Shown piece by piece: positions 546 to 39,727 of a stretch of 64,000 bases of DNA. A program made the position numbers and the translations under genes. The notes under the pieces were generated by a model. The model was not told the DNA's origin. It saw only the letters and a list, made by a program, of their open reading frames with translations, and ran no database searches. This DNA comes from Dendronephthya gigantea. Lineage: Eukaryota. The DNA is taken from the NCBI RefSeq assembly GCF_004324835.1, contig NW_021163015.1:3016323-3080322 (forward strand), read 5' to 3'. Position 1 is the first letter of the stretch. Each line of letters begins with the position of its first letter.

Positions 546-3500
546 ATGTCTATCGATTTAAAGACGAACAGTGCCAGCCTTTCAAAGGCTTGGCAAGATA
601 TTTTTGATGATAAATGCGAAACAGATTGGTAAGTAATCACTCGTTAAAGTTTGAACGTTTATTAACAAGTTTATGAGTTTAAATGGCTGATTTAGATGTC
701 TCAATAAATTCGATCTGTATATATTTTCATACTTTTAATAGGGCACTCTTTGGTTACGAAAAGAATACCAACACTCTTAAAGTTGCCGACACTGGAGGTA
801 TTTTTCTTTCTCGATGATGTAAAACTCAATCCAAAAAGCTTTTCCCAAACTTTAACCTGTTTTATTTTGATACAAGATAATTTGTTTACATTTTTAATGT
901 TGCAACATGATTTGGAATATTTCGTTTTGTCCCAGGATTTCGCTTCACAATCGTTATGATATCATTAAATAGAAGCTTTAAAAGCTAATTTATAGTTCAA
1001 AAGAACTCCAAAAATAATATTAGAATGTATCTGTCCATTGGTCTTCAAGGATGAAATCAGTGAAATTGTGTCTGCTGGATTTGCGATTTACTTCCGGTTT
1101 TAATAGTATTTTTAAAAAAAATTTGACTGCTGTGTCTATTACCCAATACTTGAATTTTAATAAATAGTTGATAAACAACTGTTTAAAATGTAGACATCTC
1201 ATAACCTCCAACAATGTGGCGATGGTGATAACAAGCTAGCAAAGTCAGCATGTTGCATCATGATAACCACTACTTCCTAGAGCAAGCTGTAACAATCCTT
1301 GAAGTTATTACTTCATACTTTGTGATATAGCGGACAACTAGTTGAAATATTTATAATAGTAAATACTTCACTATAATGTTTTGTATATCACTGGATTAAA
1401 TCACTTTATGATATTTAGATGGAGGTTTTGAAGAACTTAGTGATGAGTGGAACAGTGGTAAAATGTTGTATGCTGGCTTGAAAGTTATTGATCCTAATAC
1501 AAATCTACCAAAATATGTTCTGATAAACTGGGTTGGTATTCTTAAAATGATATTGTGTTGGTAATATATAAACATTATCACCACATGGAAATGTGATGAT
1601 AATTGTCGCCATTAATAATCATTCACATTATTTTCAGCCTTTGATTAATCCTATCCCACAAACCTTACCTGTATTTATTCATGGTCTTGATACATATAAT
1701 GTCATAAAATCTACAGTTTGCGCTATTCACCAGTACCAACCATAACTATCTTATCATTTTCACATCAAAGGTGGGTGAAGGTGTTCCATCATCAAGAAAA
1801 GGAACATGTGCGAATCATGTCAGAGATGTGGAGAGATTTTTCAAGGTAATATTACTTGAATGGTAACCAGTGGATAATTTGGTAGTACTTGATGGTCGTA
1901 CTCGTTACACAATTCTTTCAGGGACATCATGTGGCAATAAACGCTCGTAATGATGATGATGTTGAAGAAAGTGTTATCATTGAAAAGGTTAAATCATCTT
2001 CAGGTAAAAGGATTTGATATACTCCTACCATGACTTGTACACAGTTGTTTCTCTGCCTAATGCCAGATGCTTTATTTTATAAATGGTAAAGTCAAAGTTA
2101 GTTGTTTATCAGAAAACTTCTCCTTTCTTTAGGAGCCAACTACAGTTACCATAAAGAAAAGGCCAGACCAGTTGAAGCACCCACTGCTGTGGTAAGTTTG
2201 ACTTACTTGATGCTCTTTCTGATGTGCATACTGTGTACTCTAGTATAATTTATATGCAATTTTCTACAATTTTATTTCGTTTTTATCAAATTTCGTTTCT
2301 TTCGACATGCCAGGGTTCTGTTTACCAGAAACAAAATGTACGCAAAGACACGGATATGGCTAAACGAAATCAATTTTGGTCGCAACAGGAAGTAAGGAAG
2401 GACACTTGACAAGTGTTTTCATACATTTTGGGAGTGAAAATTGATGATTTTGTTTACCGTCGACAGATAGATGAAGCAAAACGTCAAGACGAGGAAGCCA
2501 AAAGCAAGACTCAGACGAAAGACGAAGCCGAGAGAAAGCGCAAAGAGAGAGAGGTTAGTTTCCGTTTCTCGACTTTTGTAAAAGAAGATGCAACAAGCTC
2601 GTGAGTTTGCCATTGACGTTTTACGAATAAGTTGGTGTCTGCCAGAATGGTGAACTGTTTCCATCGAGTTTTAGATGGTCTAGTGTTGCTTTTCTCTTTG
2701 TCTCTTGTGCTAAAATCACTTGAATTGTAACCGAATTTCCATGTTCTATTTCATAGCTACGAGAGGCGAAGACGAGAGAAGAACAGTTCAGAGAAAGATC
2801 AAGAAGCATTGACGAGAAGAGGTGACAAATAGACGTTTATTTGCTTGTTTAGGATAACCCAGTAAGGCCGTAAAACCATCGACTAAAATTTTGTGTTTGC
2901 ATGCAGTATTTTACATATGTTCTGCGAATATATATCATGGCCTTTTTCTTACAACTAAGTTTAATTCATGCAGGAAACAAGAACGTGAAATAGCAAAGAA
3001 GAAGGAAGAAGAAAGAAAGGAGAAAGACGCTGCAAGAGCTCAGGCTTATACCAAGGAATACGAAGAAGATAAAGCAAGAGCCGCGGCTGCCGCAGGAAGG
3101 AGAGAGGTTCGCATTACGAGTTTTTGTTCAGCAGAAGCGTTTGAAACGGTAAACAAAATCTTTTCGTTGGATTTCAGGAAGCTGCGGACATGATCAGAGC
3201 CGGGAAGGCAGCCAGACCCCAGCCCCCTGCTCCACAGGCGCGGCCACGTCCAGCTGTGCCCGAGCCGGAACCGGACAATGAACCAGAACCTGAACATGAA
3301 CCTGAACCTGAGCCTCGTTATTCACCAGAGCCTGAACCGGAGCCTCGTTATTCACCAGAGCCTGAACCCGAGCCTCGTTATTCACCAGAGCCTGAACCCG
3401 AGCCTCGTTATTCACCGGAGCCTGAACCCGAGCCAGAACCAGAACCCGATCACCGTTATGAACCGGAGCCTGAACCCGAGCCAGAACCAGAGCTGGTAGG

Positions 3501-4162
3501 TGTCGACCGCGAAATCTCGCTGTGTTGTCAGTGTTTTCATCTTTTTCTAATTCCAACGTTAATGCGTATCCCCAACTCTCTAAGTCATGGCTTTATGTTA
3601 CAGTACAACTGTATCTTCTCTGACTCAGATCTAATCACTTCTTTATTTTGTACCTCGTTAGGAACAAGACAATGAGTATGATATCCCGGAGAGCGGTCCA
3701 GTTACTGGGGATCCGTCAGCTGGATATCAAGACCAACAAGATGACGAGAATCTCTATGACAACGCTGACGCCATAGTGGAGGGTACTGGTCAGGTGAGGA
3801 TTTTCGAATACAATTTGTATTGCAAACAAAGTTAAATAGCACGCTAATGTGTAATGTACTCTCGTTTAATGTACTTTTAGGAAGAGTCAAGTGGCGATGA
3901 TGTTCGTGCGAAAGCATTGTATGACTATCAAGCAGGTATGCTACAAGTCTTCCCCTCCCCTTCCCCCACAAAATTGCATTTTCCTGCGCGTCACCATTAA
4001 TAATTTTGTATAAATTACCTAGCTGACGACAGCGAGATCACGTTTGATCCAGGTGATATAATAACGGAAATCAATCAGATAGATCCAGGTTGGTGGCAAG
4101 GTAGGGCGCCTGATGGTTCATATGGCTTGTTTCCTGCAAACTATGTAGAAATCATTGATTGA
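546..4162 (+). CDS. DBNL: Drebrin-like protein / actin-binding protein 1: N-terminal ADF-H domain, charged coiled-coil linker, Pro/Glu-rich repeat region, C-terminal SH3 domain. 14 coding exons
   Basis: Translated exons align along the full length of vertebrate DBNL (mAbp1) as I recall it: [28 protein letters not shown] / [18 protein letters not shown] / [36 protein letters not shown] / [25 protein letters not shown] / [16 protein letters not shown]... / [19 protein letters not shown] / [26 protein letters not shown] ... final exon [45 protein letters not shown] (SH3). Exons: 546-628, 742-797, 1419-1531, 1771-1845, 1922-2003, 2133-2191, 2314-2391, 2467-2553, 2757-2821, 2974-3106, 3178-3495, 3662-3793, 3881-3935, 4023-4162. 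Every junction is GT...AG and the phases are consistent. Confidence 0.88.
3301..3420 (+). repeat. Perfect in-frame tandem repeat, 4 x 30 nt (CCTGAACCNGAGCCTCGTTATTCACCAGAG), encoding ([10 protein letters not shown])x4 inside DBNL exon 11. Degenerate PE-dipeptide copies flank it across 3262-3495
   Basis: Read directly from the sequence. The four units differ at only 1-2 synonymous positions. Together with flanking PEPEPEP tracts this yields a Pro/Glu-rich stretch of about 75 aa between the coiled-coil linker and the SH3 domain. Confidence 0.95.
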
Positions 4163-4454
4163 AATATGGCATTATAAACAAGAGACCGCCGCATTTTGCC
4201 TGCTCCATGGTTGTAGCATCAAAACTTTATATTTGTAGGTTATTTTTTTACGTTATTCAAATTAATACCAAAACAATAATATAAACAGATAATGGTCTAG
4301 GTCTTGAAAGTTGAAACAGGGCCCGGGGTAGGCTTGTTATCAACTTCCTAAAACCGAAAGTTTGAGTTGATTGAAAATATACACCACCTTCCATTCGTTT
4401 CCAATCAATCAGTTCAATTCATTTATTCGTACTAAAACTCCTTTTTAAGCAGGT

Positions 4455-4610
4455 TTGCCACCGGGCCACTTGTTCGCGCCAAGCGACTTCGAAAACAAAT
4501 TTCGGTAATGTGATTGGTTGAAGAAAAAAAATCCGTTGCAATTTCTTTCTCATTAGCCAATCACATTACGGAATTTATTACCGCCATGCGAACAAGCATG
4601 GCCAGCGGAT
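4455..4610. repeat. Imperfect ~155-bp palindrome (two ~65-bp inverted arms around a ~25-bp A-rich loop), about 300 bp downstream of the DBNL stop codon and probably inside its 3' UTR. Hairpin-forming or MITE-like element
   Basis: Left arm ...GCCACCGGGCCACTTGTTCGCGCC...AAATTTCGGTAATGTGATTGGTTGAAG. Right arm CTCATTAGCCAATCACATTACGGAATTT...GCGAACAAGCATGGCCAGCGG. Reverse-complementing the right arm matches the left arm along blocks TTGTTCGC and (A)AATT(T/C)CGGTAATGTGATTGG. Confidence 0.6.
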
Positions 4611-4768
4611 CACAGCATTGAATTAAAGAGAAGAGATGTCTACTCTTTGATTAATTTATATGCGCGCTTTGTATTTGTAATGGAACAGAAAGTGCAACTG
4701 ACTGCACTTATCTTAAAGCTAATGTCGCACTGTACTATGTTTAAAACGTGATTAATAGTTGAATGCTA

Positions 4769-4774
4769 AATAAA
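4769..4774 (+). terminator. Candidate polyadenylation signal AATAAA for DBNL, about 600 nt after the stop codon
   Basis: First canonical AATAAA hexamer downstream of the DBNL stop on the + strand. There is no transcript evidence. Confidence 0.3.
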
Positions 4775-7708
4775 ACAAAAGTACGAAACAGTAATTGCAC
4801 TGTAAAAAAAGTAATTTTTGATATAGAAAATTAGTTGATAAATGAATGAGTTCTTCTTTGAAAAAGAGTTGTTTGTTTTGTGAATGACACTGTATAAACA
4901 CCGTGTTTGCCTGAATGTAATTTATTACCCTATTTGTACTTGTGGATGTCCTTTCAAGGACGGATTAGCGGAAATATACTAATCCATATTTCATGGTATT
5001 GCTTCTCCATGCAAACTCTGGCTTGACGAGTTCCTGTATCGGTGCTTCCAAGGCGCAGACCATTTTTCACACTTGTCGTTTTTATCTCCCCAAGTGTCAA
5101 TGGTCCTGGAGAGCGCTCCGTACGCAATCTCTGCGCCCCTGCTATCTCCAACCACAAACCTCAATATGACACACTGATTTTGCTTTGAACAAGACAAAAA
5201 TATGCTACCGGATAATGCGGTCTTGCACTGCCTAAAATAGATGAGAAAACTTCTCGACGTTTCGACGCTTGTCAGAGAGAATATGCTTGAATTCTGAAAA
5301 TATATTTTCGATGATAGATAATGCATGTAGAGTGCTGTTGGTTTTGAAATTCCCACGATGTTCTGTATAACCTGCCCACGGCGATAACACCAGCCCACGC
5401 TGATAAAGAACGTGTCACACAAAAATAACACCATAGCCACCGGTCATTCAACCCGGTTCAAGGTAACACAGGAAAGAATGCAGACAATCTATACCAGAAA
5501 TATCAATGATGCATATACCTTGATTTCGTTATCCAGCAATCCATAGATAAAAAATCTCACTTTTCTTTTATTTTCAACTAGTAAGAAGGAATAGAGAGTT
5601 TTGTGGCTAACGACAGGAATTTGACGTTTGGGACAATACGAAAATGGTTTTAGCTCTCTCTCTCTATAGTATATATAGTTCACTCTAATAACTTGGAGTA
5701 CTAGGCCGAGAAATTGAGAGATACAATAGCTTTAGGGTATGGTGCAGGTGTGGTTAGGGGGGATAAGAACAGGGTGTTGAAAAGATTGCAAGTAATGTAC
5801 TCTCTAGTCAAATTTAGTGCCTTTGTAATAATTGCACAACCAAATTTAGCTGTGATATTATCAGAATATCAGCGTATAGTAACCTGTTCATTACACTATT
5901 GTTCACATGCAAGTAATATTATAATTAATTGAATGTATCTAATTATCGCCATATTATATGCATCAGTTTTTCGCGAAAGCGTGTGGTAGCAACCGCGCGG
6001 ATTTTCTGCAGAAATATTCGTTGTTTTAAACGACTTTGTTAAAGAGATAAAACAGCTGACCAAATTGTTTGTACGTAAGCGAGACATTCTAAATCATTGT
6101 TGCTAAAAATGTCACCAGGTTCAAAGGATGCCAACTACTGTGTTAATAGGGTGAATAGAGGTGTGACATGCTGTCATAACGCGTTGTTCTATATTCAATG
6201 TTGAGATAAGGAAATTAGATTTCCCCAGTAACATGTTGTTCAAATTCATTCTGTTCCAAATGCATGCAGTTTTAATCACATAACCAAATTTCCTTATTTA
6301 CTGTAGTCTGTAATTAAAAAAAGGGCGACGGAATGCATATCGCGATGCTTAACTATAGACTCTGTACGTCTGATGAAACTATGCAAGGAATTGCTATGAA
6401 TGTGAGTGGGTGTTATAACAGTATTGTAGATTTTAAAGGGACTATATTTAGAAAATGAACTAGACCTCACAAAACGGTCATACTTCAAGTGACGGGGATT
6501 GTAAATGATATAGGAACGAATATAAATGATAGAGAGGGTCACGGTTAGGGTAGATTTGCTTCAAATGCTTCAGACTGCTTTGAAACTGTAGTAGGTACGC
6601 TTTTCATTATGAAAATAATTAGAACTGGCTCTCATACATGCAGTCTGCATTCAACGTCATATATAATCTCTAGGACTCTTATCAAGACTGAGGTGAATCC
6701 ATTATGAACAATGATTTAAAAGGAGAGGAACTGCTTGCTTGAAAAAGAGATTCCTCTCTTTATATTATTAAGCTGAAACAAATAAATGATTGTCGTTTTG
6801 TCCATGTGCCGACAGCTTGCATTTGTCAGGACCGCGTGTGTTATCGTTTGTGCATACAATGGACAGGCCATTGTGAATTCCTGCATGTCGCCGAGTGGAA
6901 TTCAAAAGCTAATCCAAAATTAGCTCAGCAAACTATACTTGTTTCGTCTTCTTGAAAGAAATCATTGCGAAACATAGCTGTTGAATGTGAGCACACCAAG
7001 CAATCTGACTAACATTCAAAAATAAATGACAAAGGTAAACATATTTTACAATTAGAAACTGTTGACAGGGAATGAATCTTTTCGACAGATTGTTTTTTCA
7101 TTATATCACCTGTGTATATAAACATTGATGCAATAATCATTTAACATTATTTGCGTTAGCTTAACCACTGTTTACCTTTGCAGAAATAAACCGTTTCAGA
7201 TTAAAAGCGTACAGTTAAATATATAACCTAATGTAGTGTGTACTATATTGGGATTTGGGACATAATCATCTACGCTATCAAATGTCACCCAATGTATACA
7301 TATACATGCATGCAGGCGTTATGTTGCTTTGTCTAGCCATATAAAGCGAGGTTTATTCACAATGGGATGTAAGATTTTGGTTATTATTCACGCTGCATTG
7401 TGAACAGACAACACGCATTGTTGTTGCTGTCGCAATTTTAGTCAGTAACTTCTTTATAAGAACATTATTAGCGTGGAGTCCCGCGGTGCTTGTGGGCGGA
7501 GAACTAACCCGTAATACACTTAATAACTCTCGTACATGACAATCGTTGGTTTATTTTCAGCTTACATATCATATTCGTGTACATGCCAGAGAGCAAGATT
7601 GCACGAACATTTTTAGCAGAGTTTGACATTACCGTTACGGTTGACATTTTCGAAATATACTCAGATCTCGGACATCTGATAGAGTTTTGCGAGCACAAAT
7701 ATTTGGAT

Positions 7709-10700
7709 ATGAGACGGAGACGAAGCGGAATGATCTTACAGCATGCTAATGCTATTCGTGTTGTAATACTGGGGAAGAAAGGCGTCGGGAAATCAGGTAA
7801 TTCTTACATTACATTACAATTGTATAAATATGCATGTTCACATTGTGACTTCTCGTTTTTACAAGGATTACGCACGCATTCACAAGGATTTTAACGTTGA
7901 ACTGTAACAGGCTAATGCAATTTTCTAACCCTAATTATCGGGGTTCAAGATATCTTTATCGAATTGTTTCTCCAAACTAAAAAATCGTACAAACTTCGGC
8001 TATTTGTGTACAGTCCTGAATGTGGCTGCATTATCGTGCGTTAGAGTTGGACAGAATGGTAACTACTGTCAGTATCTGTGTGTATCTCTGTCTTCATTGC
8101 ATATGCAGTCGCGTTTTCGAGCGGCAGTGTGCAACCAACCATTTAAACATTTCAACCAAATATTCAAAAAGTTTTGAAGTTAGTACATTAGTACATTAAA
8201 TTGGTCAAGCAGCATTGTCATTTTGGATGCTAGATTTGAATTGCTACTTTCACTCTTCAGAGGAGCATTCTTCTTCTTTCCTAAAAATGTCGAGTGTGTC
8301 TAACGACTGCGGTAGTTCTGTAAATTAACATCCTGTATCGATTTAAAAAGCCTCGAAATCCCAGTATGGTGCTGTGATATTACTTCAAATTGTGGATCGA
8401 GGAATGCGACTAATTATGATTGTTCATTATACCGTAGCTGTTTGATTTTCGTGGATTTTGGATCGCGTCCAATCGCGACGCAACGAGAAAACGCATGAAT
8501 CACACACTCGTGGGTAGACCTTCAAAATGATTTACTGCGACACTCGACAAACAATCTCTTCAGGCCTTGAACCATGCATTTTTTAAGTGCTATTTCATTC
8601 CAGAATGTTTTCGTGCAAACAGCTACAACTTTTCCGACCAGAATCATTTTGGTCTAATTTAAACGTGCTGCATTACGGATAACCAAACGAACAACGTAAA
8701 CATCTTGGTAAAAGACCTAAGTCGATTGCGCTGAGTTTAAAATAATAGTTTGTGTGAGTTTGTTTGAGACAATTTTCTTCAAATTTGGTCTTGTAGTTAT
8801 CAAATACTTAAGATGTCTCGCCAATTTGCTTAAAAGATTATATCCTGTAAAAGTATGTTAATGACCTGTGTCTATGAGTCTATGACGCAGCGTTGCCGAT
8901 CGTTTGTCTTTATCCCATCTTCCGACATTTCATGCGTGTAGATTCATAAATTGTGGAAAGCTTCAAAGAATATAAGTAGAAAAATACACACGGCATTGTT
9001 CTAGTTTCTTGTCTGTCTGCCACAATGTCTCGAAGGCACTTTAACATATTAAAATTAAAAAGCACAGCTCATTAAATATCGGCTATTATCATTTTGATAA
9101 CCTGTGACCTATTCGTTACCTACATTACCTTAATGTAATGAAAACTGCACTTGGCTTTGAAATGCTGGATCAGAAATATTCGTAACTTATCTCAACATCA
9201 TATTGTGAGATTTTTGTGGTTTTTTAAACCCAAATTGCCCATATTTCGCTACGAGGGTTTCCATCAAAGGCATACAACTGCATGTGCATGACCTCAACTG
9301 GTTTTGGGAGTAGGACTTGTCAATTTAATCACTTCGTCTCTAATTTATGACACCCGACAAAAATTTTAATGTTTTTTGGATTGCATGTGCCATATTCATG
9401 CGTGGAAAAGCTGAAGACTGTATTTGTTGTAATATCTTCTTTCAGCTCTGACCGTCCGGTTCATGACGAAGCGTTTCATTGGCGAATACGACAGCAGTGG
9501 AGGTGAGCTTTCGTTGTAATATATATGAAGTAATCATTGCAGATATTGATAAACGGAGACATATACACGTTAAAATAGCGTCATGTTGCATATGCCCGAC
9601 AGGTCACTTCAAAATAACATGATGTACAAAAATCTGAACTCAGACAGAGGTTTTCATGGATTCACTCAAAATCTACGCTCACTCGCAGAGATTTTTTGCC
9701 CCACGTTTATGATGTATAAATTTTTGAGCGTTTCAGACACCAGCATGTAACATGATGAAGCGTGTTTCCTTTGTGGAATTCGATACATTTGATTCGTGTT
9801 TTAAAAATAGTGAAAACCGCGGCTAAATTTGTCCGTGTTTAACAATTAAAGGTTGATATAATGAGTTCATCTGTCAGGCCAACGGTTGAGCTTCCGTTGC
9901 AGAAAATAGAAAAAATCCTTGTATTGTAAAACTTCGGGATTTAGGCAAAGTGTTAAAAACACATGTTATTTAGATCAACAGTTCAGAACAGTTGGACACT
10001 CTTTCTTAATTGCTTGTTCCTCTCGATCGCACCTGAACTTTCTATAGAACCAAGGTGACGGTAGTCGGTAGGAACTCTTCTATTTTTGGCAAACATATCT
10101 TTTTAATCGTTTCTCTCAAAGACCTCAGTGCAAAAATAGCAGCATACCTTCAAATTAGTGGGGCGTAGAGTTCATTCTTTTCTCTAAAAAATGGGTATTC
10201 ACTAAGAGGATCTATAAGATACTTGATCGATAACGGCTCTTTAGGCTGCGAAATTCGCACCATATTCGACTTAACCACGGTGATTTAACCAGGTATGAGT
10301 CTTCCTGAAGGCAGAAGTACAAACACTGGGGTTAAAATATATATGAAATCCAAAAATATATTTCAATTTCAAGAATCATTGATTTCCTTCGACCAATAAT
10401 CATAATTCCACATCAAAGTTTTCCCAGTGGGTTTTCCTGAATCGCGTGGTAAATCAAATGCAACGCAATGCATGACCACTGACTGGGCACTGAGTCTTTT
10501 TAATTATAAAAAAAGGAAAGAAATAAAACCATTAAATGGTTCAAGCAATTCAACAGATTTTCAGTTCGCATGTTTTTCATTATTGTATGACGTTCTTGAT
10601 GACAAATACGTAAGCTGGGTCAATGAAAAAATTAATTTTGTCGTATAGGTTTCCTGGGTAGTGAAAGAACGTCTGTCTGCTCAGGCTATCGTATAGGTAA

Positions 10701-13165
10701 CAAGTATAAATTCATTCAACAACATTAATTGCTCCGTGCTGGATATAAACCGCCTTTGCACGTGCAATATTTAACTGTTAACATGGCGACTTTCATCGAC
10801 TCGTCGATGTCCAATTAATTAAAATTATGGAAAAAATTTCGTTCTCTAAAAACAATGATTATGTGTAGGTTCAGTTTATGAGATTTAGAAGTTTTTTTTC
10901 GCTGGAATTATTTTTTTTTATCAGTCAAGCCACAACTATTCAAGGATTAGAGATGTTTTGGTCTATTATAGTTTTGTCGGATTTTATCGTGGGAAATTTT
11001 CTAGCGTACAAGTGGTTTTAAGACTTGAAGATTTTTCACATTTTTTTTCCAAATTTTACAAATGATCAAGGCTTGTTTTAGGCATAGAGACGTTAAGGTT
11101 GGCACTCTTAGGTACTTAGGTAACATCCTTCTATTCGACTTAACAATAATCTCTGAATAAAGCATTGCAAACTTTATTTGGCAAAACTCTAGAGTGTCAT
11201 TGTGCACGGTGATAACAGCTTTAAAAATATTCCCTTGTGTGGATACATTGAACATTCTCAGCCAACCCAGGGTCTTTCATGGTTCTCAGTCTCAAACGGC
11301 GGGTAATTACCCGCAAATACTCGTCATTTTCCGTCACTGTTCTACGGAAGGTTTTGCAATTCAATAAATAAATAAATGAAAACCTTGGTGCGATTCTCAG
11401 CGCCCCAATTTCCTGTCGCACCTGTCACATTTTATAGCGTTTTAGTTTTTCAGACAAATCTTTCATCGAATAACCTTTGCCCAAGACGTAATCGTTTCCC
11501 TGATCACCTACCTTAACCATGTTCCTAAGGCTTTCTCAAGAAAAAAAAACTCTTCGTTCTAAATTTCAACTCGATCGATCAATATTTCTCACCAACGCAC
11601 AGACTTACCATCGACTTTGTCTGAGAACTATTTCGCAACAAAACCAAATTTGTCTTCTCTGAATTGCATTGTCGCTCTCAAAGTCCACCGCACAATTGAA
11701 AGAAACCCCATTACCAATTTAGAATTAATCAAAACAGAGAAACTATTAAAATAACGGCTCCCAACAAAGCCGGTATGTGAATGATCGTGCTGGGAAAAGA
11801 GTTTGCTGTGTGTGTCAATAAAACACACGCGAGGTAGCTATGCAAGATTCCATTGTGTGTGTTTGAGGGCTGACAATGACCATTTTAGACAACCCAACTC
11901 TTTGTCTCAAAATCTACCGCACGTCTGCGATGGAATATCTGGTATTCCATGTTAAAATCCACGAATATAATCCTAACTTCAATCTTAAATCTGACCTTAA
12001 TTCTTACCCAACTATTAACCCTATAAAAGATAGATAGATTTAAGATCATATTCATAACTCTCTTTCTCCCTAACCACTAACTGATCAAGCAGTCTAAGTA
12101 AACAGTATATGCTCTTGCTGTTTAGATGAAACTTGGAAACATATGGCTTTAATTGACGAAGAACACGTTCCACTTGAAATAAACGACACGACCGGTGAAG
12201 TAAGGCTGCAAACATTTTTTGACATTTCTCCAATTTTAGGAAGTTGATCTTGAATGTGTGCAATGCTTAGAATTCTTAACATTCATTCGGCAATTCCGAC
12301 TAAAGAATATCGTTTAAAATAGCTGCTGTACACCGAGATGGAATACAATAAAACGTGCTTGTTTAGCTCTTTCCTGTCATAGATTTACCAAAATATATCC
12401 ACACATGCAGGCACCACTGGAGAAGAAAAGAGAGTTATTAGATTCCACTCTGTATAAAACAGTTTTTTAACGGTGCATGATAGCATCTTAAAACTGGAAT
12501 TATCTATTAAAATGAAGTATTATATCCACAATACAGACTATATAAGATATTTTATCTTACGCACTTTCCCATAAAACATGCATGAAAACGACGCACTACC
12601 GACACAAACTACTTGATTTTTGGTCCCACAAATGATAACATCGATTCTCAGTGAACTGGTCATCATCTGGTGATAATTCAATATACCTACGATTTCAACA
12701 ATTGCTTGTTTGCCTTTTCAGTGTTCCGAAGAGAAGCTGGACTTGTATGTTGGTTGTGGGGATGTTTTTATTATAATGTATTCAATTACCGACAAGGAAT
12801 CACTAGAACATGCTAAGCATTTGGGCGAATCGGTTCAGCGTAAAAAACCAGACGCGTCGGAGAACATTGTTCTAGTCGGAACCAAAGCGGACCTTGAACA
12901 TTTACGTCGTGTCGACTTCAGCTCTGCGCAGGAAACCGCAAACGAACTCCAGTGCCTTTTCCAAGAAATCTCCATCAGTGATGGTTACGAACAAGTTGAT
13001 AGACTATTCCAGGAATTATTGCGGAGATATTCTAAGAAAATCAGCGCGCAAAAAGCTCCCGTCAAATCGATCTTGAAAAAGAAACAAAAAAGCAAAGATA
13101 ACTTAGGCAAATCATCGTTGAGTCGCAAGAAAAGTATGCATAATTCTGTACCCATTGTAGAATAA
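7709..13165 (+). CDS. Ras-like small GTPase, RERG/RASL11/RASL12 subfamily (paralog A), 4 coding exons, no C-terminal CAAX motif
   Basis: Exons 7709-7796 (MRRRRSGMILQHANAIRVVILGKKGVGKS, P-loop), 9446-9502 (ALTVRFMTKRFIGEYDSSG), 12126-12199 (DETWKHMALIDEEHVPLEINDTTGE, G3 motif is DTTGE), 12722-13165 (...DVFIIMYSITDKESLEH...IVLVGTKADLEH...FQEISISDG...SMHNSVPIVE*). The alignment resembles human RERG ([25 protein letters not shown]...DTAGQ...LVGNKADL) as I recall it. An alternative upstream in-frame ATG at 7583 would add 42 aa. I prefer 7709 because it mirrors the short basic N-terminus of paralog B. Confidence 0.8.
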
Positions 13166-15024
13166 ATTATAGCGTCGTTTGTACAGTACATGCAAATTTG
13201 TAAATATAAATATTCCTATGTATTAGTCTATACTAAGTATAGTTATTGTTTATTGATAAAGTAGTTTTCATATTTAATGACCTGTTTAGGACACTGAAAT
13301 AAAAGGAAATTTTCCTGTAATACTGTTTTTACTCGAGGAGAGAAGAATAATTCAGTAAGCGCAGAAGAGAGTCTGGGAGCAGCTTGATCTTTAAAGAACA
13401 GTTAGAACTTGTTATTCCCGAGAGGCACTCGTGTATTCTTATCTAAACAATACTTTGTTTTTCCCTTCCTGTAGCTAAAACCAGAATAGAAGCTTTTTAG
13501 ACATTTTGATAGGTTCTCGTGTGAGCAAGCTGTTTTCAGAAAACTATCGTGCCATAGCTTATCTGTTCCCAAAAACTACTGCATGGTGTCCACCCGCATG
13601 ACCTGCACACCTGCCACTTGTGGCTATCTAGATACTTTATTTAAGGCGAGATTTGTGTCGCTTTTGACCGCACCTAGCAACAAAAAGCAAAAATAATATC
13701 GTTGAGTAATTGAGTTTATAGGTCACTCGGACAAGCTAGCGTACGTGTTTCTTTCTAGTATGTCGGCAACAAGTTTGTTTTGTTTTCCGCAAACAGGAAT
13801 GACAACAACAACTTGGGAGGATATGACAAAAATAGATCCTCATGTTGGGGTTTTACGTAATGAGATATTATTGACGGTAGCCGAGCTCTTTAATTAAATT
13901 TCAGATAAAACTTTGAGCGTTAAATGCAGTTAGAGTCGATCATTGGTTAGAGGCTGCCAGAGCTATTTTGGAGTGTGGCTCCTTTAAACATCCATGCTGG
14001 CATACATTTCATTTCTTTCTAAGATTTGCACAGTTTTGTTGAGAAAATTACGAAAAATGGATAAAGTTAAATGCCCCAACTATTCCTAAAATGTTGGTTT
14101 GAAATTGTCCATTCACGAGATTTTTCTCCAACATGCACTTGGTGGACTCAAAAATGCTGGAAATTTTAATGAGTTTAGCTTTGATTAATGATCTGTTGCC
14201 ATGGTCCACTTGGAATTGTAGCACGTAAAATAAAGCAGCCACGCTGGTGAATAATATCCAATAATTTACTTACAAGACAGGGAGGATGTCCATCAATCCT
14301 GGACACTTAACACCCTTGCGCAGATTGATTAACATTAAGTGCGCAAATCACGTTTCCAGTGACGTGTTTACCCAGTTATCGTTTGCCACGAGGATATATA
14401 AACATCCCAATACGTACGAGCATGCGAATTGATTAGTTTAGATGAGGTAATATTGTCGTTTTGATAAGAATCGTAAAGTATATTGTGGCGGAACCACTGG
14501 TAAACACAAGGCACTTTGTACAAAGATACCTGATAACCCAGCGACCCTTTTTATATGTGCACCAACCTTATAAAACACAGTGTTTACGACAAGTATTTTG
14601 CCCGAAAATTAGAATTAGAATGATCCGCATTGCTTTTTTGCGTTATCCTACTTGACCGCATCGCCTACGACTTCGCTAATCTGATAAAATAACGGAATAT
14701 CATTAGTCCTGAAGCAGAAATGGCCATTTGAGTTTTCAATGATATATCATTGAAGATATATTAACCCAAAAGGTTTTATAATGTAAACATCATTGGCTGA
14801 TGCCACAAATATTTCGGCACCATGGGTTACAAAGCGTTGCAATAAAGACGAGATTAATAATACTATTATTTATCATCTCAAGTGTTGACGAACAGCCTGG
14901 AGATAATTAAATTACCAGAGCGTTTTGTTGTGTTTAAAGTTTCCTGTAGTTGAAGCGAGAGGGTTAAAGAAAGGCGAAGAAGTGTTCCAGAAGGAAGGAG
15001 GAAGGAAATCATCCCTCAGGGATC

Positions 15025-18000
15025 ATGATGAAAACGAAAAAGCGTTCATCATCAACTACAAAACATGTCAATGTCATCGTACTTGGTCAGGATGGTGTTG
15101 GAAAGTCAGGTCAGAAATTCAGAATTAATGAAATATCGATCAGTCTAATGTAGGTTTATAACTTATAAGCAGATAGCATGTGGTTTATTGGAGCAAAGAG
15201 CCAAAGACGTTCTTGCACCATCAAATATTTTTTTATCAAAAACCATTACGCAATAAAGATTATTAAGCCTCGTTGGAAGTTTGGGGCAAGAAGCTCTCTC
15301 TTATTTTAGTCTATCATAGTGAACGAGATAGACTATAAATAATAATATACTGGGTTATGTGTTGCAAAATTCATGGAAGGCTGTTATTGACTATATTTGT
15401 ACAGTTTGAACTGTGTAAGATGACAAGTAAACGATGGAGTGATAGCACATGATTGTCATTATGCATGCAAATACTGCATATTTGTTCATCTCTCATAAAC
15501 CTCGATTACCTAAAACTAAAGGGTATGTTCTGTTCAGTCTTGCTTTGGTGAATTTCCTTTGTTTTTGTGCGGGATTTCCGCACAAAAGAAGTCATTCAGT
15601 ATACGCGTTGCGGTAATTAACAGAATGATAACGGAGATGAATTATTAAACACCATCCCGCTAGTTCAAGATAACATGCAGCTTGCATCGTGATTACACAT
15701 TCTGTGTCGTTCACTCGTTCTTGTAACCAGACATTTTACGCAATACCGCTTCTAAAACGTCACATTGCGTCATTACATTTTTCTTCTCATCTTGACAGGT
15801 AGAATGGTCTAGTGTTTTACACAATTGTAGCGAAATCTTCAATGACTCTTCATCACATTTCTAAAGTCTACTGCGGTCAAGAAAGGTTAAGGACATTGTT
15901 TTTTTTCCAAATTGCGTTGACACAAGCCGTGATTTCATTTCAAGTTTGATGGCCAGAGCATTATTCTGACCATCTTTCTATTTCAGTTTTCAACGAAGAT
16001 CCGATTTAAATTTTTTTGCAAACTGGTTATAACACAGACTTCATGCATTTATGATTTGATACAAGTTATGACTAAACTACAAATACTATTTGTTTTGTTT
16101 CTTAATTCCACTCATTTTTCGCCAAAAATGGTTAAGAAGAATTCGAGGTTTGCACCGTTTGCTGGAAAATATGGCTGAGAGATCTTACATAAATATCGTC
16201 AATCTGTCGTTGCTGTCAACAACATCTGATAGATGTTAAACGAAACTAGATTAGGTTAAATTGCTTGCATTTTATGATATCCGAATCGGCGAGGATTTCA
16301 CTGCATGAATTGATTTTTGACGATTGAAATAAGCTGATGTTAGCCTGTAGTTAGCCGGAGAACATGCAAAATACAATTACTCTCTTAGATTATTATTATT
16401 TACTGAATATCAAATAAGCATTTAACTTATACACCTGTCAGTACCTAGACACATTGCAACAAGATAAGTACATATATAGCTACATCGCGTTCAATCATAT
16501 AGTTGCAGTGAAAAACACTCCATTAGATCACAGTCATTTTTACTTCGCTGAGAGGAATGAATTAATACAATTATCTGCACTGCATCAAAGGACTCTTTAT
16601 AAGTGAATATAGTTTTCGATTTTTCTTCTTCCAGTTTCTACGTATCATTTGTTTATTTGAGTGTCTCCTGACCTGATAACCTAAAATAATAGCAGATAGG
16701 ATTGCCATATGAGCCACAGATATTCAGTGCATGCAGAGCAAATTGTAAGAAATATCGTTTTATTTTATGCCTCCGTGTTTAATCCACCTTGTCAGTTTAA
16801 TTGGGTATTTGAGACCTACCAAATCAGATTATAAAATACCAAGCCTAAAAACAGTGGCAGAAAATGAAAACAAGGAAGGAAATACGATTCCCGGCACAGG
16901 CAGCAGATTAAAAAATTCCACTTCCAGCCCACCTGCATTGCGAGGCTGTCTTCTCGTAATTTCATGTTTGGATTTTTAATATTTTAACTTAATATAAAAC
17001 TAAACAGATCCTAAAACCAAAAAGATTTTGCCTATAAGTTGGTCCTTATAAGAAAATTCTGGATTGTTTACGTTGATTCATCGTTGCACTGTTTATTTTC
17101 ATTTCAAGTATGTAAATATATAATCGCATTGCAACCATTTAGCGTGCCACGACTGTATTTTTTTGTTTAAGCAGAAAGAGATTTAATATGTACAGGGTTC
17201 AATGGGTTAAGTTAAAGTTAGATATGACTCTCATCGATCTTGGCCCAATTAAAATCTGATTTGCATCTGCCAGTCCAGAGGATTTTCATGCAGCGGAAAG
17301 GAATGAATTGCTAGTTTTTTAAAAAGAGAGCAGACGGCGTGGTTGAGCAAGCAATACAGATTTCACCGGATTAGTTATTTGATGGACCTGTGTAAATTGC
17401 ATAGGCTCTATCGACTGACTCATCATTAAAATTAGCCTTGTCTGTTGACTTTGTTTTTAAATTCGTTGACTCTCTTTCGTTTTCTTCATGTCTTGCCAAT
17501 TGCTCTAAAAATTGTACTTTTATTTTAGCTTTTACAGTTCGTTTGAAAACAAAGCGCTTTATTTGGGAATACAGTAATATTGGTAAGTCTTATTGTTTAG
17601 GCGAGTGATGAAACATTTTGAGGGTAAGCGTTGTACAACTAAAATATTTTGTGTATTTAGAGGACAGTTATAATCACTGCTTAGAATATGAAGGAGAAAA
17701 TGTTTCATTGACAATCACAGATACATCCGGACTGGTAAGATTACTCGCAATTCTTTTAACGATTTTAATGATCAATTCTTTAAAGCTTCGTCTTTGTTCA
17801 CATGATGACATTGGTTGATGCCAAAAAAATGTCTGACTTTAAAGCTTCACTTTGAAACTTATTGGCTTGTTTTAAATGAAATGATTTACACAACTTTTGA
17901 TGAACATATTACGTTACTCAGCTCTTCACAAACATTAAACTTCTGTCTTCAGAAATCTGAGAAAGAACTTGAAGAATATCTTAGAATTGGAGACTTGTAC

Positions 18001-18369
18001 ATAATCATGTACTCAGTCACGGATCGAACATCATTCCTAGAATCCAGACGTCTTGGAAGCTTTCTGCGAGAGAATAATTCTGGGAATTTCGAGATGGCAC
18101 TTGTCGGAAACAAAACTGATTTAGAACATGCCAGAGAAATCATGGAAAGCGAAGGAACTTCACTTTCGGAGGAATTAGAATGCAAATTCTATGAAATATC
18201 TGTGGCAAAAAACTTCTTCGATGTTGAGTACATGATGAATGATGCGGTGAAAGGATTCACAAAAGCGTCAGAGTGTAGATCAAGTAGAACTTCATTATTG
18301 AAAGTGAAGGAAAATTTATCGCGGAACAAGTCTTTTAGATCGTTCAAAAGAAGAATGTCGATTTCGTAA
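15025..18369 (+). CDS. Ras-like small GTPase, RERG/RASL11/RASL12 subfamily (paralog B), 4 coding exons with the same intron positions and phases as paralog A, no CAAX motif
   Basis: Exons 15025-15109 (MMKTKKRSSSTTKHVNVIVLGQDGVGKS), 17529-17582 ([18 protein letters not shown]), 17661-17734 (EDSYNHCLEYEGENVSLTITDTSGL, G3 motif is DTSGL), 17953-18369 (KSEKELEEYLRIGDLYIIMYSVTDRTSFLESRRLGSFL...ALVGNKTDLEHAREIMESEG...FYEISVAKNFF...KRRMSIS*). Intron phases are identical to paralog A, which fits a tandem duplication. Confidence 0.8.
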
Positions 18370-18861
18370 TAGCGAATTCGCAAGAAGAGGCCAGGAGATC
18401 GATGTTGATCAGCGTGTGGGAGGAAGTTAGCAACAGAAGGCGAAGAGGAGAAATTAAAGTCGAGCTAATGCTGTTTTGATAAGCTTCAAAGTTACACGAT
18501 ACCGACTGAGTGATCTTGTAACCAAAGTCTCAAATCAACGCCATCATTAGAGACACTGAATACAAGGGCTCGCATACTCGATTAAATCCTATATTTTCCG
18601 TTTGTGAGTGGGCTCATTACGGCACTCCCGACGATGATATAATTTTAATAATTACTCTGACTGCAGACAATTGACTGGCCGCCCATGCGCGCTTGCATTG
18701 TTCTCGAATGATATCTTTTGACAAGTACTCAACTGCGCAATCGCTTTAATTAAAGCAGATTAAAAAGCCCACGAGATTTTGATTACGAAATGCGTTCATC
18801 ATTTTTATGTAAAAGTAATTAAAATATCAGGTAACAAACAGTTTATCGCAAACATTAATTT

Positions 18862-19569
18862 TTATTTTTTATCGACTCTTTTTACAGCTTTGTATATGTA
18901 AATATCGACATTTTCGTCGTAGTGTACTTTTGAAATCTCGAATTTCTCATTCAGAAGTCCAAGAAAGTTTCTGTCTCTCTTATATCTGATTTTACAGGAT
19001 AGTAACACTATAGTCCTGATATCACTTAACTCAGTGATCGTTTGAAGTAGCTGTGGAAATGTGTCTTCAATGTATACAATATCAGCACCAAGGATGTAAT
19101 CAAATGGGGGTTTAAACGGCGAGACATCTTGTCCCCATTCCAACTCACGGACATCAACAGAAGATGAGTTCAGATTTTTAATATTTCTCTTGACATTATC
19201 ATGAGCTAAGTCCAGAGCCATCCGTCTGTCTGTTATGGTGACTTGTGCTCCAAGGTAACCTGCAACAATCCCAACCAAACCAGTACCTGTACAACAAAAG
19301 GATATCAGGATTAGGATTAAAAGATTAGGATTTATAGATTCATGTGATCCAGTACCTGCTCCAAGCTCAATGACTCTCTTCCCAGTTAAATCCACCATTG
19401 TCTCTAAGTACTTTACTAAAACAAGGGCGGCGTCCCATACAACAGCTGCTACACCATTCGTCTCCCAATCTTGGCTAATATTCACTGTATGACCTGCAAA
19501 CGTGAACTCTCTTGAATCTGTTTGAAAAATTGTAAATAACTTGGGAGGTTCGTAAACTACCAATTCCAT
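18862..19569 (-). CDS. METTL21A: Protein-lysine methyltransferase METTL21A-like (seven-beta-strand methyltransferase), 2 coding exons with an in-frame 69-nt intron at 19287-19355
   Basis: Translation [56 protein letters not shown]...[43 protein letters not shown]...[79 protein letters not shown] aligns end-to-end with human METTL21A as I recall it ([32 protein letters not shown]...ILGADIIYLEETF...[26 protein letters not shown]). The intron (GTACTG...TTGTACAG) splits motif I, GAGTG|LVG. An in-frame ATG 90 nt upstream (19659) would prepend the hydrophobic peptide MLSIVLNKLLFVIAISAMMSCGEKSSSKNN. Confidence 0.85.
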   Translation of the reverse strand: [235 protein letters not shown]

Positions 19570-20186
19570 ATTATTTTTTGACGATGATTTTTCCCCACAG
19601 CTCATCATGGCACTAATAGCAATCACAAATAGAAGCTTATTCAGTACTATAGACAACATTAAATCATTTGTCTTGACTCAAAACTAATTGTAAACGTGTC
19701 CTATTTTTAAACCGCTCCTCGGATGGCGGCCATCTTTGTTTTAAAATATGGTTTATAGATTTTGTAAGTACTTCATGTAAATGGAGAATAGGAATGAGGA
19801 AAATGAATTTATAAACAACATTAGTAAGAAAGTCTGTAAGATTCCTTTAAAACTATCACAAAAAGGTTTAAGAGTTTCTTCACGTGAAGGGAATAAATCT
19901 ATTTGGTTAAATGTGAATTGTCATTTTCACTTTCTTTTTTCCCCTCTGTAATTTTCTTAACATGACTGAAATGTGTGCATTAAATATGGTCAGTGGTTGC
20001 GAACCTGCAACACTTCATTTAATGCTCGCCACAAAAAACGTGTCCAAACTCTAAAGTTCTAAAGTACAGTTTCAATTTGCTGTGTTTCTTGTGGTGGTAA
20101 ATTGTTCAGAAATTAAAGCAGATTCAAACGATTTGTGTGTTATATTAGAAAGGGAAAAGGCTCGAGTATCTCAAGGAGCAGTATAA
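19570..20186. promoter_or_regulatory. Putative bidirectional promoter, about 617 bp, between the divergent METTL21A-like (minus strand) and GPAA1 (plus strand) start codons
   Basis: The two genes are head-to-head. The interval has no ORFs and contains a CpG-containing stretch (CCGCTCCTCGGATGGCGGCC). This is inferred from gene arrangement only. Confidence 0.4.
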
Positions 20187-23100
20187 ATGGCAACAAAATT
20201 ACGAAGATTACTCAATTTGGTCCTCAGACATCATGTTAAAATTGGGTAAATATGATTAATATAAATATTTTATAGAGTTGAAGGCTGTGTACACTGGTCA
20301 AAAGGTTTTCCTCAGGTACACTTGTGCAAGGCAATATACCACCTTAATTTCGACTCTTACTACACCCCCCCTGTCTTGCACAATCGTAACTCATTCCCCC
20401 CCTTTTTTACTTCAGATTTCTGGGTTACATTAGTGGTGTGATTTGGTTTGTTGCGCTACTTCATCCATCATTTATTAGCCGAACATATTTCTCAGAAAAC
20501 GCCCTCCTGCCAGCTATGGTCGACACCCAATACCGTTATGGTCGTGAGGCAAAATCTTTAAAAGCTGAAGTTGAGAATCCTAGTGAAATGTACAGGTGAA
20601 TATAAGCCAAGATCAGGGATTGGACCCAGATTGGGAACATAGTATGTGATCTGTTTGATGATACATCCCAATAAAAGCTCTGACAACATTTACATATGAA
20701 TGTGTTTTAGGGACAATTTTCCACTGTGGTTAATGAATAAAATGACTGCAATTGGTTTAGAAGCATACCAACAGAACTTCACAGTTCATTTTCCCAAAGA
20801 ATTATCCATTCTAAATGATCCAATCAATGGGACGAATGTTTACGGTATTTTGAGAGCACCTCGTACTGCAAGGACAGAAGCATTAGTGTTTTTGGTACCG
20901 TTCAAAACACGAAAGACTGGACCATTTTATGAACTCGTGTTCTTGCTGTCGTTAGCAGAACATTTCAGGCGTAAGTGAAGTGAATTGTTTAGGAATTTTT
21001 ATAATACAATCTAATAAACTGTGTCTGTTTAGATAACATATATTGGTCAAAAGATATTGTATTCTTGGTGGTTGATCAAAATGAAATTGGTGTACAATCA
21101 TGGTTAGATGAGTACCATGGAATACAGTCGAAATGTAAGTTAGATTGGGTCTCTATATGCCACTCTCTAATATCTAGTACTCTCTAGTATCTATAGTTTT
21201 AAGATGATTGGAAATTCTTCAATGTTCTGTAGATGTGAAGTCCTCTCGAATGCTAGGCAGAGCTGGTGAAATACAAGCAGCCATCAGTTTAGAATTAGAG
21301 GACAGAGATATAAGTCACATGCAAGTTATGATAGAAAGTTTGAATGGACAACTTCCAAACCTCGATCTTGTGAACATGGTCATCAGATTATGCAGAAGTG
21401 AAGGCATTTCAGTGGCTTTAAAGAAATTGGTAGGATTATTTTTTGCGAAATGCCAAGAAGGGTATGGGAGTGACTTTGGGGCCATCGTATTCCCTAAAAG
21501 CATCTTCTAAATGAAACTTTAGCTGTATTCGAATATATCAAAATTATTTAAAATAACCACCCTGATTTTTTTAACCATTCAATGTCTATTTCTGTTTAAG
21601 CCTGTTCGGTTTTTCAACGATGGATTCGACGAGTACAGAAGTTCGCTAAGCACTATGGTATCAATGATGTTTGGTCAGGCTTCAGGTCGACCATCAGCCA
21701 ATCATGGCTTGTTTCCCAAATATGGTATTGAAGCTGTTACCCTGTTGGGGAAAAAAGCGGTTGGAGAGGCTCCTGTTGGTTTTGCCAGAGTTGGAAGGTT
21801 AGAAAAGAAGGATGTGGTGGTATATCATATAATTGATGTTTTAAGAAACATCTCTTTCTTTTCCCTAGGGCATTGGAAGGAATGTTTCGTAGTCTGAACA
21901 ATCTTCTTGAGAGATTCCACCAATCCTTTTTCTTCTACCTCCTACCCTCAACGTCCCATTATGTATCCATTGGTCTCTATATGCCCCCTCTCGGCTGTCT
22001 CATGATTGGACCAATTTTAGCTGCAATGGCTTGCTGGATTGCATCTGCTCTGGAGAAAGGTCTGGTTCAGAAATACTGTGATGAAATTTCAATTTTAATG
22101 TTGATGAAATGGTTGCACAAGATTTGTTAAGAGCAGCTCCTAAGCATTTAGTTGGATAAATGGATATTTAAAATACTACCTTTAATGGTTGACTCAATGT
22201 TGGGTTGTACTTTAGATGAAATCATGGATAATGTGGAAGAAGAATTAGAAAATAAACAGGAGAAAAATGGTGACAAAAATGAGGATGGTAAAACACAAGA
22301 AGATGAGAGCTCTGGAAAAACAGATGAATTACCTAAAAAAGACCCCATTGATAATGATGAGGAAGTGAGTGCACTTTAATCAACTATTTCAACCTTTGCC
22401 TTGATCTAAACTGCTCAGCTAACACTTCAAACATTTACTACAGCTAAACTGATCTAACCATCTATTTCTTTATTTAGTTTGCCTTCACTCAAATACCTCG
22501 TCATTTTGGCAAAGTTCTCCGTGTTATCCTTGCGGGACATTTGGTGGGGTTGTTGGTCTACCTCAGTCCATACATGTTACGGTTCAAGCATGTGTTTAAG
22601 GTCAAATGGGACCCTTCAAATTTCACTATTTTTGTTTTATTTGGGGCATTTCTGCTTGGCTCAAATCGAGGATTTATTATGAGGTATTAAAGAGGATAGT
22701 TTTGCAGGGCAGATACACTCTCCCTTTTACTCTGAAAGTGTTATGATTGGGTCAGTTTTAGACATTACAATCTTAGTGTTATTTTTTCAGAATTACAAAC
22801 AATATGGAAAAAAGAGATGTGATCCTGTTAAAATCTATCGCTTTGGTGATATATGTTTGTCAAGTTGGATGTTTGGCAACAGTTAATTTTTCATTTGGAT
22901 TTTTCCTCGCAATTTTCACTGTACCAGCTTTCCTTCTTGTCCAGTCCACAAAAAACAGGTACTGTAGCTACGAATCTAGTATTTCAGAGAGTTTCAGTTG
23001 AGAATAACTGTTTATTCATCTTTTTGTAGGTTTCGTCGTCAGTTGCAAATACTACTAGTGTTTTTGGCCTCTCCCCCCTGTATTTTATTCCTATTGATAG

Positions 23101-39634: not shown

Positions 39635-39727
39635 TATTGTATTGCCTTTTCTTGCGAGGTTTCCGCGTGAGTACACACACTTGAGCGTAGTTTGCATAGT
39701 TATTGTCTTTGAGCGAGTGTTTTTGTA

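Follow-up and report, generated by a model that had tools for sequence, protein, structure and literature searches.

An Apparently Old and Constrained Tandem Pair of Atypical RERG-Like GTPase Genes in the Soft Coral Dendronephthya gigantea

Introduction

A 64-kb window of the genome of the octocoral (soft coral) Dendronephthya gigantea (contig NW_021163015.1, positions 3,016,323–3,080,322; unless stated otherwise, coordinates refer to this window, the whole stretch of DNA that was analyzed) contains two neighboring genes for Ras-type small GTPases, here called A and B, whose products lack the equivalents of both Gly12 and Gln61 of Ras. Did this pair arise by a recent duplication and acquire oncogene-like substitutions that lock the proteins in the GTP-bound form or alter their nucleotide, as a first-pass annotation proposed, or were the unusual residues inherited by two old members of an atypical family? 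The evidence argues for the second answer. We consider it quite probable that A and B diverged long ago, are maintained by selection, and belong to an anthozoan expansion within the RERG/RERGL/RASL11/RASL12 group, and that their close relatives are transcribed. A and B are predicted to act independently of GTPase-activating proteins (GAPs) and without prenylation. Both genes are already present in RefSeq as RERG-like, and the pair adds uncharacterized members to a known class of atypical small GTPases.

Family Membership and Fold

The gene models were built by reading splice sites directly. A (7709–13165, 220 amino acids) and B (15025–18369, 209 amino acids) each consist of four exons on the forward strand, with lengths of 88/57/74/444 nt and 85/54/74/417 nt, respectively. 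All six introns have GT-AG borders and follow phases 1, 1, and 0 in A as in B. The genes lie head-to-tail, with 1,859 bp between the stop codon of A and the start codon of B. The first-pass annotation had placed its motifs correctly on this strand, and its description of a head-to-tail pair about 1.9 kb apart with identical exon phases also holds.

Both proteins match the Pfam Ras family (PF00071) well above the curated cut-off of 21.6 bits, A with 109.1 bits (E = 2.2e-31, residues 17–176) and B with 100.4 bits (E = 1e-28, residues 17–171). Among proteins of solved structure, human RERG (PDB 2atv, E = 8e-34) comes nearest in sequence. AlphaFold2 models based on 56-sequence alignments have mean predicted local distance difference test scores (pLDDT) of 85.3 for A and 84.2 for B. 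They show a confident G domain with canonical order of its elements; C-terminal to it are a long helix and a basic tail that is disordered. Foldseek comparisons of both models with RERG, RASL12, M-Ras, and Rap gave target-normalized template modeling scores (TM-scores) of 0.86–0.92. Matches to RERG (2atv) and RASL12 (PDB 3c5c) were in the range of 0.88–0.92; RERG is the nearest structure for both proteins (0.92 for A, 0.90 for B), joined by RASL12 for B. Domain search, sequence comparison, and the structure prediction that had been suggested as a check all agree with the original assignment of the pair to the RERG/RASL type.

Phylogenetic relationships were assessed by purely distance-based trees (Kimura-distance neighbor joining, NJ, with bootstrapping over 169 columns). 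The human RERG, RASL11A, and HRAS reference sequences used for the trees were entered by hand and not drawn from a database; the G domain of this RERG sequence agrees with the 2atv alignment. The RASL12 reference was checked against PDB 3c5c, and the RASL11B sequence used is about 96% identical to the database RASL11B. HRAS, R-Ras2, M-Ras, and Rit2 were split from every sequence of the RERG/RASL type, A and B among them, in 100% of 500 bootstraps. Deep nodes received less than 50% support, and a grouping of the anthozoan clade with RASL11 was found in 0% of the bootstraps. One-to-one orthology of A or B with RERG, RASL11, or RASL12 was not supported by any grouping in these trees.

The G1 (GxxxxGK[ST]), G3 (DxxG), and G4 ([NT]KxD) motifs are all present in A and B. 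The switch residues of a canonical GAP-regulated Ras protein are absent: A has Lys12, Ser35, and Glu61, and B has Asp12, Asn35, and Leu61, so that Gly12 and Gln61 are indeed replaced in both. No CAAX box, CC or CxC motif, or Cys within the last 10 residues was found in A, B, or their orthologs, which confirms the earlier statement that both lack a CAAX box. With anthozoan RERG-like proteins A and B have in common the four exons, a charged residue at position 12, the missing Gln61, and a C-terminal [RK][RK]xS motif; an N-terminal start of the MRRRR type also belongs to this set of features.

A third RERG-like paralog of D. gigantea (P0048, 206 amino acids) is located elsewhere in the genome. 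It contains the motif GSQNVGKS, has DATSP in place of DTAGQ, and groups weakly with RASL11/RERGL, not with A and B. Because P0048 groups apart from the pair, D. gigantea appears to possess at least two deep lineages of the RERG/RASL group.

Inherited and Octocoral-Specific Active-Site Residues

In order to place the substitutions in A and B in their family context, full-length hits were aligned to HRAS numbering, which yielded a census of 111 RERG-like homologs (the set found with A). None of them has Gly at position 12, which is mostly Pro (68), Asp (28), or Lys (6), and a single one has Gln61, the prevailing residues being Lys (87) and Glu (14). Thr at position 116, which gives the G4 motif the form TKxD, occurs in 26 of the 111 homologs, and Ile or Val at position 146 in 28. 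The hexacoral relatives read G[K/Q/L]DGVGKS, DTAG[E/K/R], mostly TKxD, and S-I-S. Judged by this census, the loss of Gly12 and Gln61, the TKxD motif, and Ile/Val146 are common to most of the family and were inherited, not acquired locally.

The view that the combination of substitutions in these two genes is notable and lineage-specific is contradicted by the census, in which most of them are family-typical. The same annotation had itself conceded that some were typical of the family; it was right in this, and the RASL12 motif DTADL cited in its support is borne out by PDB 3c5c. The phylogenetic outcome that it had named as a refutation was reached in substance, most of the substitutions being ancestral and not lineage-specific, although strict orthology to vertebrate RASL11 or RASL12 found no support in the trees.

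In switch I, Thr35 is replaced by Ser in A (EYDSSGDE) and by Asn in B, whose motif EYSNIED has one residue less than that of A. The absence of Thr35 from B had been recognized correctly; the motif EYDPTLE with which B was contrasted is that of human RERG, whereas A has EYDSSGDE. Asn35 is also found in human RASL12 (EYDPNLE), RASL11A, RASL11B, and fish RERGL. Among the clades sampled, the residues that by these alignments are confined to octocorals are Lys12 in A and Leu61 or Thr61 together with the shortened switch I in B.

Comparison with orthologous loci was possible in L002 (contig CATKWK010000823.1 of assembly GCA_949826985.1) and in L005 and L006 (Tara Pacific metagenome scaffolds), which are called octocoral on the basis of their 69–92% protein identity to D. 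gigantea and the common gene order. All four A-type sequences in the comparison have Lys12. B orthologs differ at position 12, with Asp in D. gigantea and L005 as against Val (GQVGVGKS) in L002 (12446–12530 of that sequence) and P0121; position 61 is mostly Leu, with Thr (DTSGT) in L005 (11060–11133 of that scaffold). Variable residues at 12 and 61 in an otherwise constrained protein would fit positions that have no catalytic role. The 56-sequence alignments show no exchange of Gly10, Gly15, Lys16, Asp57, or Asp119, and [N/T]K is kept at G4. The nucleotide-binding residues Lys16, Ser17, Asp57, Gly60, Lys117, and Asp119 are retained in A and B.

Age and Maintenance of the Pair

A and B share 38% amino acid identity, and synonymous sites between them are saturated. 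The octocoral sequences separate into a clade of four A-type members and one of four B-type members, each with 100% bootstrap support. The tandem arrangement is conserved in L002 (92% and 89% protein identity) and in the Tara Pacific scaffolds L005/L006 (76% and 69% identity), and the pairs in L002 and L005 match that of the window in orientation, exon lengths, and phases. The spacer (13166–15024 in the window) is longer in L002 (2,058 bp) and shorter in L005 (1,417 bp). By these comparisons, A and B are old paralogs, and the duplication cannot be called recent as it had been in the first-pass annotation.

The intron positions and phases of A and B recur in the sea anemones Exaiptasia (P0015; exons of 94/57/74 nt) and Nematostella (P0036; 88/57/71 nt). 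Since sea anemone homologs have them too, the shared exon phases are no evidence for a recent origin. The motifs, the adjacency of the genes, and their identical phases are real, and a recent, lineage-specific tandem duplication with oncogene-like substitutions would account for them, but this explanation is highly improbable: it is already refuted on timing by the low identity and the saturated synonymous sites, and on lineage specificity by substitutions that are common to the bulk of the family. Furthermore, A and B each have their own orthologs in several assemblies, with the tandem conserved.

The ratio of non-synonymous to synonymous substitution rates (dN/dS) among orthologs is 0.032 for A and 0.061–0.077 for B, the values for B resting partly on near-saturated dS. 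Because the ratios lie between 0.03 and 0.08, they indicate that both genes are under strong purifying selection. They also bear on the idea that A, B, or both are duplicates in decay, either pseudogenes or genes on which selection has been relaxed, whose motif changes are mere damage. Such decay could explain why catalytic residues were lost in A and B and why B orthologs differ at positions 12 (Asp/Val) and 61 (Leu/Thr), but we consider it even less probable than a recent duplication. Besides the low dN/dS, the open reading frames (ORFs) are intact and the splice sites canonical in three genomes, the predicted G domains are confident, and all six nucleotide-binding residues listed above are kept. 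Moreover, related species provide full-length, short intron-less contigs for both genes (L009, 1,070 nt, B-like; L010, 1,562 nt, A-like), which we interpret as spliced transcripts.

Hexacorals also have clusters of RERG-like genes. Exaiptasia has three of them within about 15 kb (L007 1–14081, LJWW01000180.1), two head-to-tail and one in opposite orientation, and Nematostella has two convergent ones within about 10 kb (L008 10001–22193, OW051990.1). In L008, a retrotransposon with RVT, RNase H, and integrase domains separates the two genes. An exclusive group of A and B appeared in 11% of the NJ bootstraps, and one of the hexacoral sequences without A and B in 56%. Groupings of individual hexacoral genes with either paralog were tested and found no support, namely of B with genes of the GQDGVGKS/TVRL type (P0015, P0030, P0130; 2% bootstrap) and of A with P0011/P0012 (12%).

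Downstream of B, a lysine methyltransferase gene of the Methyltransf_16 family adjoins on the opposite strand (18865–19677, reverse); it also follows the pairs in L001–L003 and L005/L006 (region 16747–19327 of L002 and 12489–13773 of L005). Next comes a gene for Gaa1 (glycosylphosphatidylinositol transamidase; 20700–23288, forward), again as in L001–L003. In L005/L006, Kelch-repeat ORFs replace Gaa1 after Methyltransf_16, and one of the matches obtained there is a faint one to an LZTR1-type beta-propeller. Neither Methyltransf_16 nor Gaa1 neighbors were found at the RERG-like clusters of Exaiptasia (L007) and Nematostella (L008), and for this reason synteny cannot date the duplication relative to the octocoral–hexacoral split.

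Nucleotide Binding and Proposed Mode of Action

Because the residues that hold the nucleotide are retained and invariant, continued nucleotide binding would be the likeliest state of A and B. Catalysis of the classical RasGAP type appears implausible without Gly12 and Gln61, as follows from established Ras enzymology. The more drastic predictions of the first-pass annotation are not supported. An altered nucleotide had been deduced from TKAD in A, but Rac1, a fully competent GTPase, natively has TKLD at G4. Both RERG, which keeps Gln61, and RASL12, which has lost it, were crystallized with GDP (2atv and 3c5c), which makes a constitutively GTP-bound state an unsafe conclusion. A deficiency in GTP hydrolysis is not predicted for A, as the intrinsic GTPase activity of Ras is increased by the Q61E substitution (PMC2987813; PMC10515638). 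The same three observations also stand against the GTP-locked or nucleotide-altered products that a recent duplication was supposed to have yielded.

A different possibility is that B, and perhaps A, is a true pseudoGTPase, either a nucleotide-independent scaffold with Ras fold or a protein that binds nucleotide without Mg or without switching. B combines Asn35, a shortened switch I, and Val146 with Asp/Val12 and Leu/Thr61; positions 12 and 61 vary among its orthologs despite the strong constraint on the whole protein, and the pLDDT of its model dips in switch I (mean of 72 over residues 41–50). Still, we regard this as rather unlikely. Every B ortholog retains the Lys and Ser of the P-loop, Asp57, Gly60, and NKTD without exception, which speaks for persisting nucleotide binding. 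Vertebrate RASL12, RASL11, and RERGL share Asn35, and the RASL12 crystal holds GDP.

If A and B are, as we favor, constrained and GAP-independent members of the RERG/RASL group, guanine nucleotide would still be bound, but the proteins would not pass through the classical RasGAP cycle that involves an arginine finger and Gln61. Their output would probably be set by the amount of protein, with a possible contribution from phosphorylation of basic-Ser motifs outside the G domain. A carries RRRRS at its N-terminus and RKKS near its C-terminus, and B carries RRMS near its C-terminus; the C-terminal [RK][RK]xS motifs are conserved across cnidarian homologs and fish RERGL. Docking of 14-3-3 proteins to the flanking RRxS motifs was also considered and left as speculation, the Pro at +2 of mode I/II sites being missing. 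Membrane contact, if any, would be made via the polybasic tail rather than a prenyl group. A, with Glu61, may retain appreciable intrinsic hydrolysis. B would be the better candidate for a hydrolysis-dead or nucleotide state-insensitive protein, because it has Leu or Thr at 61, Asn35, a shorter switch I, and Asp or Val at position 12 among its orthologs.

A farther-reaching version of this scheme would make the anthozoan clade a distinct, undescribed class of GAP-independent Ras-fold proteins, in which A is a self-hydrolyzing "timer", B its hydrolysis-dead or state-insensitive partner, and their adjacency is kept by co-regulation. Glu61 of A might then supply the general base from within the protein, by analogy with Ras Q61E, and be accompanied by the invariant Lys12, and B would owe its role to Leu/Thr61, Asn35, and the shortened switch I. 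Hallmarks of such a class would be Asp or Lys at 12, Glu, Lys, Arg, or Leu at 61, mostly TKxD, S-I-S, and basic-Ser motifs at both ends. We regard this version as quite unlikely.

Several points weigh against the reading of A and B as old, GAP-independent, nucleotide-binding members of an anthozoan branch. Bootstrap support for the anthozoan clade is moderate only (45% and 61% in two runs), and neither order of the A/B split and the octocoral–hexacoral divergence receives firm support in the NJ tree. Nucleotide binding, hydrolysis rate, and insensitivity to GAPs are deduced from motifs, and Ile/Val146 and Asn35 could weaken the binding of nucleotide or Mg beyond what is assumed here. The suggested phosphorylation sites are consensus-like motifs that lack Pro at +2, a residue present in classical 14-3-3 sites. 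The transcript support comes from related species and from agreement of the splice junctions with RefSeq.

No relevant papers on the biochemistry of cnidarian RERG proteins, or on RERG as a "pseudoGTPase", came up in the literature searched. Its one clue to function is from larvae of Acropora tenuis, in which two RERG-like genes located on one scaffold are reported to respond oppositely to inoculation with Symbiodinium, aten_s0011.g21 being upregulated and aten_s0011.g24 downregulated (PMC7850063). Given this response during symbiont uptake, the RERG-like family may have physiological relevance in corals. For the D. gigantea pair itself the results have little import beyond annotation, as its "oncogene-like" residues are mostly an inherited RERG/RASL trait and the pair appears old and constrained. 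A cnidarian expansion that is apparently uncharacterized biochemically is marked by the loss of both Gly12 and Gln61, with TKxD in many of the proteins and Ile/Val146 in the cnidarian ones. With its natural Q61E, Q61K, Q61L, G12D, G12K, and G12V variants under purifying selection, this expansion might offer a comparative set for studying GAP-less function of the Ras fold.

Gene Structure and Layout of the Locus

The first exon of A (7709–7796) starts with MRRRRSG, contains the P-loop GKKGVGKS (7772–7795), and ends in phase 1. Exon 2 (9446–9502) encodes ALTVRFMTKRFIGEYDSSG, which comprises helix 1 and switch I and places Ser where Ras has Thr35, and also ends in phase 1; an exon of this length, 57 nt, recurs in L002, L005, Exaiptasia, and Nematostella. 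Exon 3 (12126–12199) encodes DETWKHMALIDEEHVPLEINDTTGE and terminates in phase 0 with the G3 motif DTTGE (12185–12199), which includes Glu61. The remaining G domain is encoded by exon 4 (12722–13165), with TKAD at G4 (12881–12892) and S-I-S at the G5 position, and this exon continues through the polybasic tail and RKKS to the stop codon.

B is organized correspondingly, all of its exons lying, like those of A, on the forward strand. Exon 1 (15025–15109) starts with MMKTKKRSSS, contains the P-loop GQDGVGKS (15085–15108), and ends in phase 1, as does exon 2 (17529–17582), which encodes the switch I that is one residue shorter than in A and has Asn at the Thr35 position. Exon 3 (17661–17734) encodes EDSYNHCLEYEGENVSLTITDTSGL and ends in phase 0 with DTSGL (17720–17734), the G3 motif with Leu61. 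Exon 4 (17953–18369) comprises the remaining G domain (NKTD at G4, S-V-A at the G5 position), the end of the tail, KRRMSIS, and the stop codon.

The model of B is identical to RefSeq XP_028391166.1, and the splice junctions of A are those of XP_028391162.1/3. RefSeq A (XP_028391162.1, 262 amino acids) starts upstream at an in-frame ATG, 7583, and is longer by 42 residues (MPESKIARTF...). In the A orthologs of L002, L005, and L010, in-frame stop codons lie just upstream of the MRRRRSG start. Because these stops precede the ATG in three orthologous sequences, we take 7709 as the conserved start of A, and the extension in RefSeq (7583–7708) is probably 5' untranslated region.

The contigs L009 and L010 carry full-length ORFs, and their alignment blocks to the window break at the exon boundaries of B and A, respectively. 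L010 aligns to A at 12124–12186 (exon 3) and 12720–13164 (exon 4); exon 2 has no nucleotide block with L010, yet it is encoded in the L010 protein. On B, the first block of L009 ends at 15109, and the others cover 17527–17580, 17658–17734, and 17952–18370. As the blocks of both contigs end at exon boundaries, the junctions that form DTTGE, DTSGL, and the other motifs are not artefacts of the gene models.

A check of positions 1–20000 of the window revealed no tandem repeats inside or between A and B. No ORF of the spacer (13166–15024) had a Ras-like match in tblastn, and neither further Ras-like exons nor tRNAs were found in the window.

Other Features of the Window

Upstream of A, an open frame at 3145–3672 (forward) encodes several copies of a Pro/Glu-rich repeat, the source of which is a 30-nt tandem repeat at 3301–3434 (4.5 copies, 97% matches) in a stretch of locally higher GC content (0.43). 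This frame is probably an exon of a low-complexity protein. Downstream of the Gaa1 gene, exons of a putative DNA repair-type zinc-finger protein (23429–26305, forward) and an exon run resembling major vault protein (30520–35005, forward) were recognized by ORF reading alone; sampled fragments of these exons had no Pfam match. An ORF with a cyclin N-terminal domain (27916–28326) lies within 27507–28326 on the reverse strand. The single-exon HMG-box gene at 37652–38869 (reverse, 394 amino acids) is RefSeq XP_028390812.1, annotated as transcription factor SOX-8-like.

At 39713–41886 (forward), two overlapping ORFs of 499 and 261 amino acids contain DUF4371 and a hAT-family C-terminal dimerization domain. 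This region looks like a hAT transposase-like (ZMYM1/ZBED-type) gene or domesticated element that is split near 41104–41209 by a frameshift or a short intron. Finally, two genes with Ion_trans_2 pore domains (55781–58874, forward, and 60066–60653, reverse) are arranged convergently about 1.2 kb apart. They are of the two-pore-domain K+ channel type (TIGFGDFVP) and may be another local pair of paralogs.

Comparison with Known Systems

Several other small GTPases depart from the canonical Ras scheme. In the RGK proteins (Rem, Rad, and Gem), Rnd, NKIRAS, and DIRAS, position 12 and/or position 61 is substituted, often without a CAAX box, and regulation occurs by expression or phosphorylation instead of a cycle of guanine nucleotide exchange factors and GAPs. 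Gem structures are among the structural neighbors of B. These proteins belong to different subfamilies, and no close sequence relation to A and B was found; the likeness is one of functional analogy only.

Within the RERG/RASL group, human RERG (2atv) resembles A and B in the signature FLTKRFI(G/W)EYD of helix 1 and switch I, in a residue other than Gly at position 12 (Ala), in the absence of a CAAX box, and in a C-terminal tail with basic residues and Ser. It differs from them by keeping Gln61 (DTAGQ), Thr35 (EYDPTLE), NKAD, and S-A-C at G5, and its identity to them is 37–38%. RASL12 (DTADL) and RASL11B (DTPGI) lack Gln61 like A and B, and G3 of fish RERGL reads DPCSQ; none of these proteins has a CAAX box. 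RASL12 has lost Gly60 and RASL11 has Pro59, in contrast to DTTGE of A and DTSGL of B. With B, the RASL12, RASL11A/B, and RERGL proteins have Asn in common at the Thr35 position. Furthermore, S-V-S at G5 of RASL11B resembles S-I-S of A, and the end of fish RERGL, KRRKSV, resembles RKKS and RRMS of A and B.

The closest named relatives of A and B, with 37–48% identity, are the RERG-like proteins of the hexacorals Exaiptasia, Nematostella, Stylophora, Pocillopora, Acropora, and Montipora (e.g., P0011, P0012, P0015, P0018, P0030, and P0036). Their genes share the four-exon structure, the intron phases, and the occurrence in genomic clusters, and the proteins resemble A and B in the MRRRR-type start, GxDGVGKS, mostly TKxD, S-I-S, and the C-terminal RKKS or RRKS. 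From these relatives, A is distinguished by Lys instead of Asp at position 12 and Ser instead of Thr at 35, and B by Leu or Thr at 61, Asn35, and its shorter switch I.

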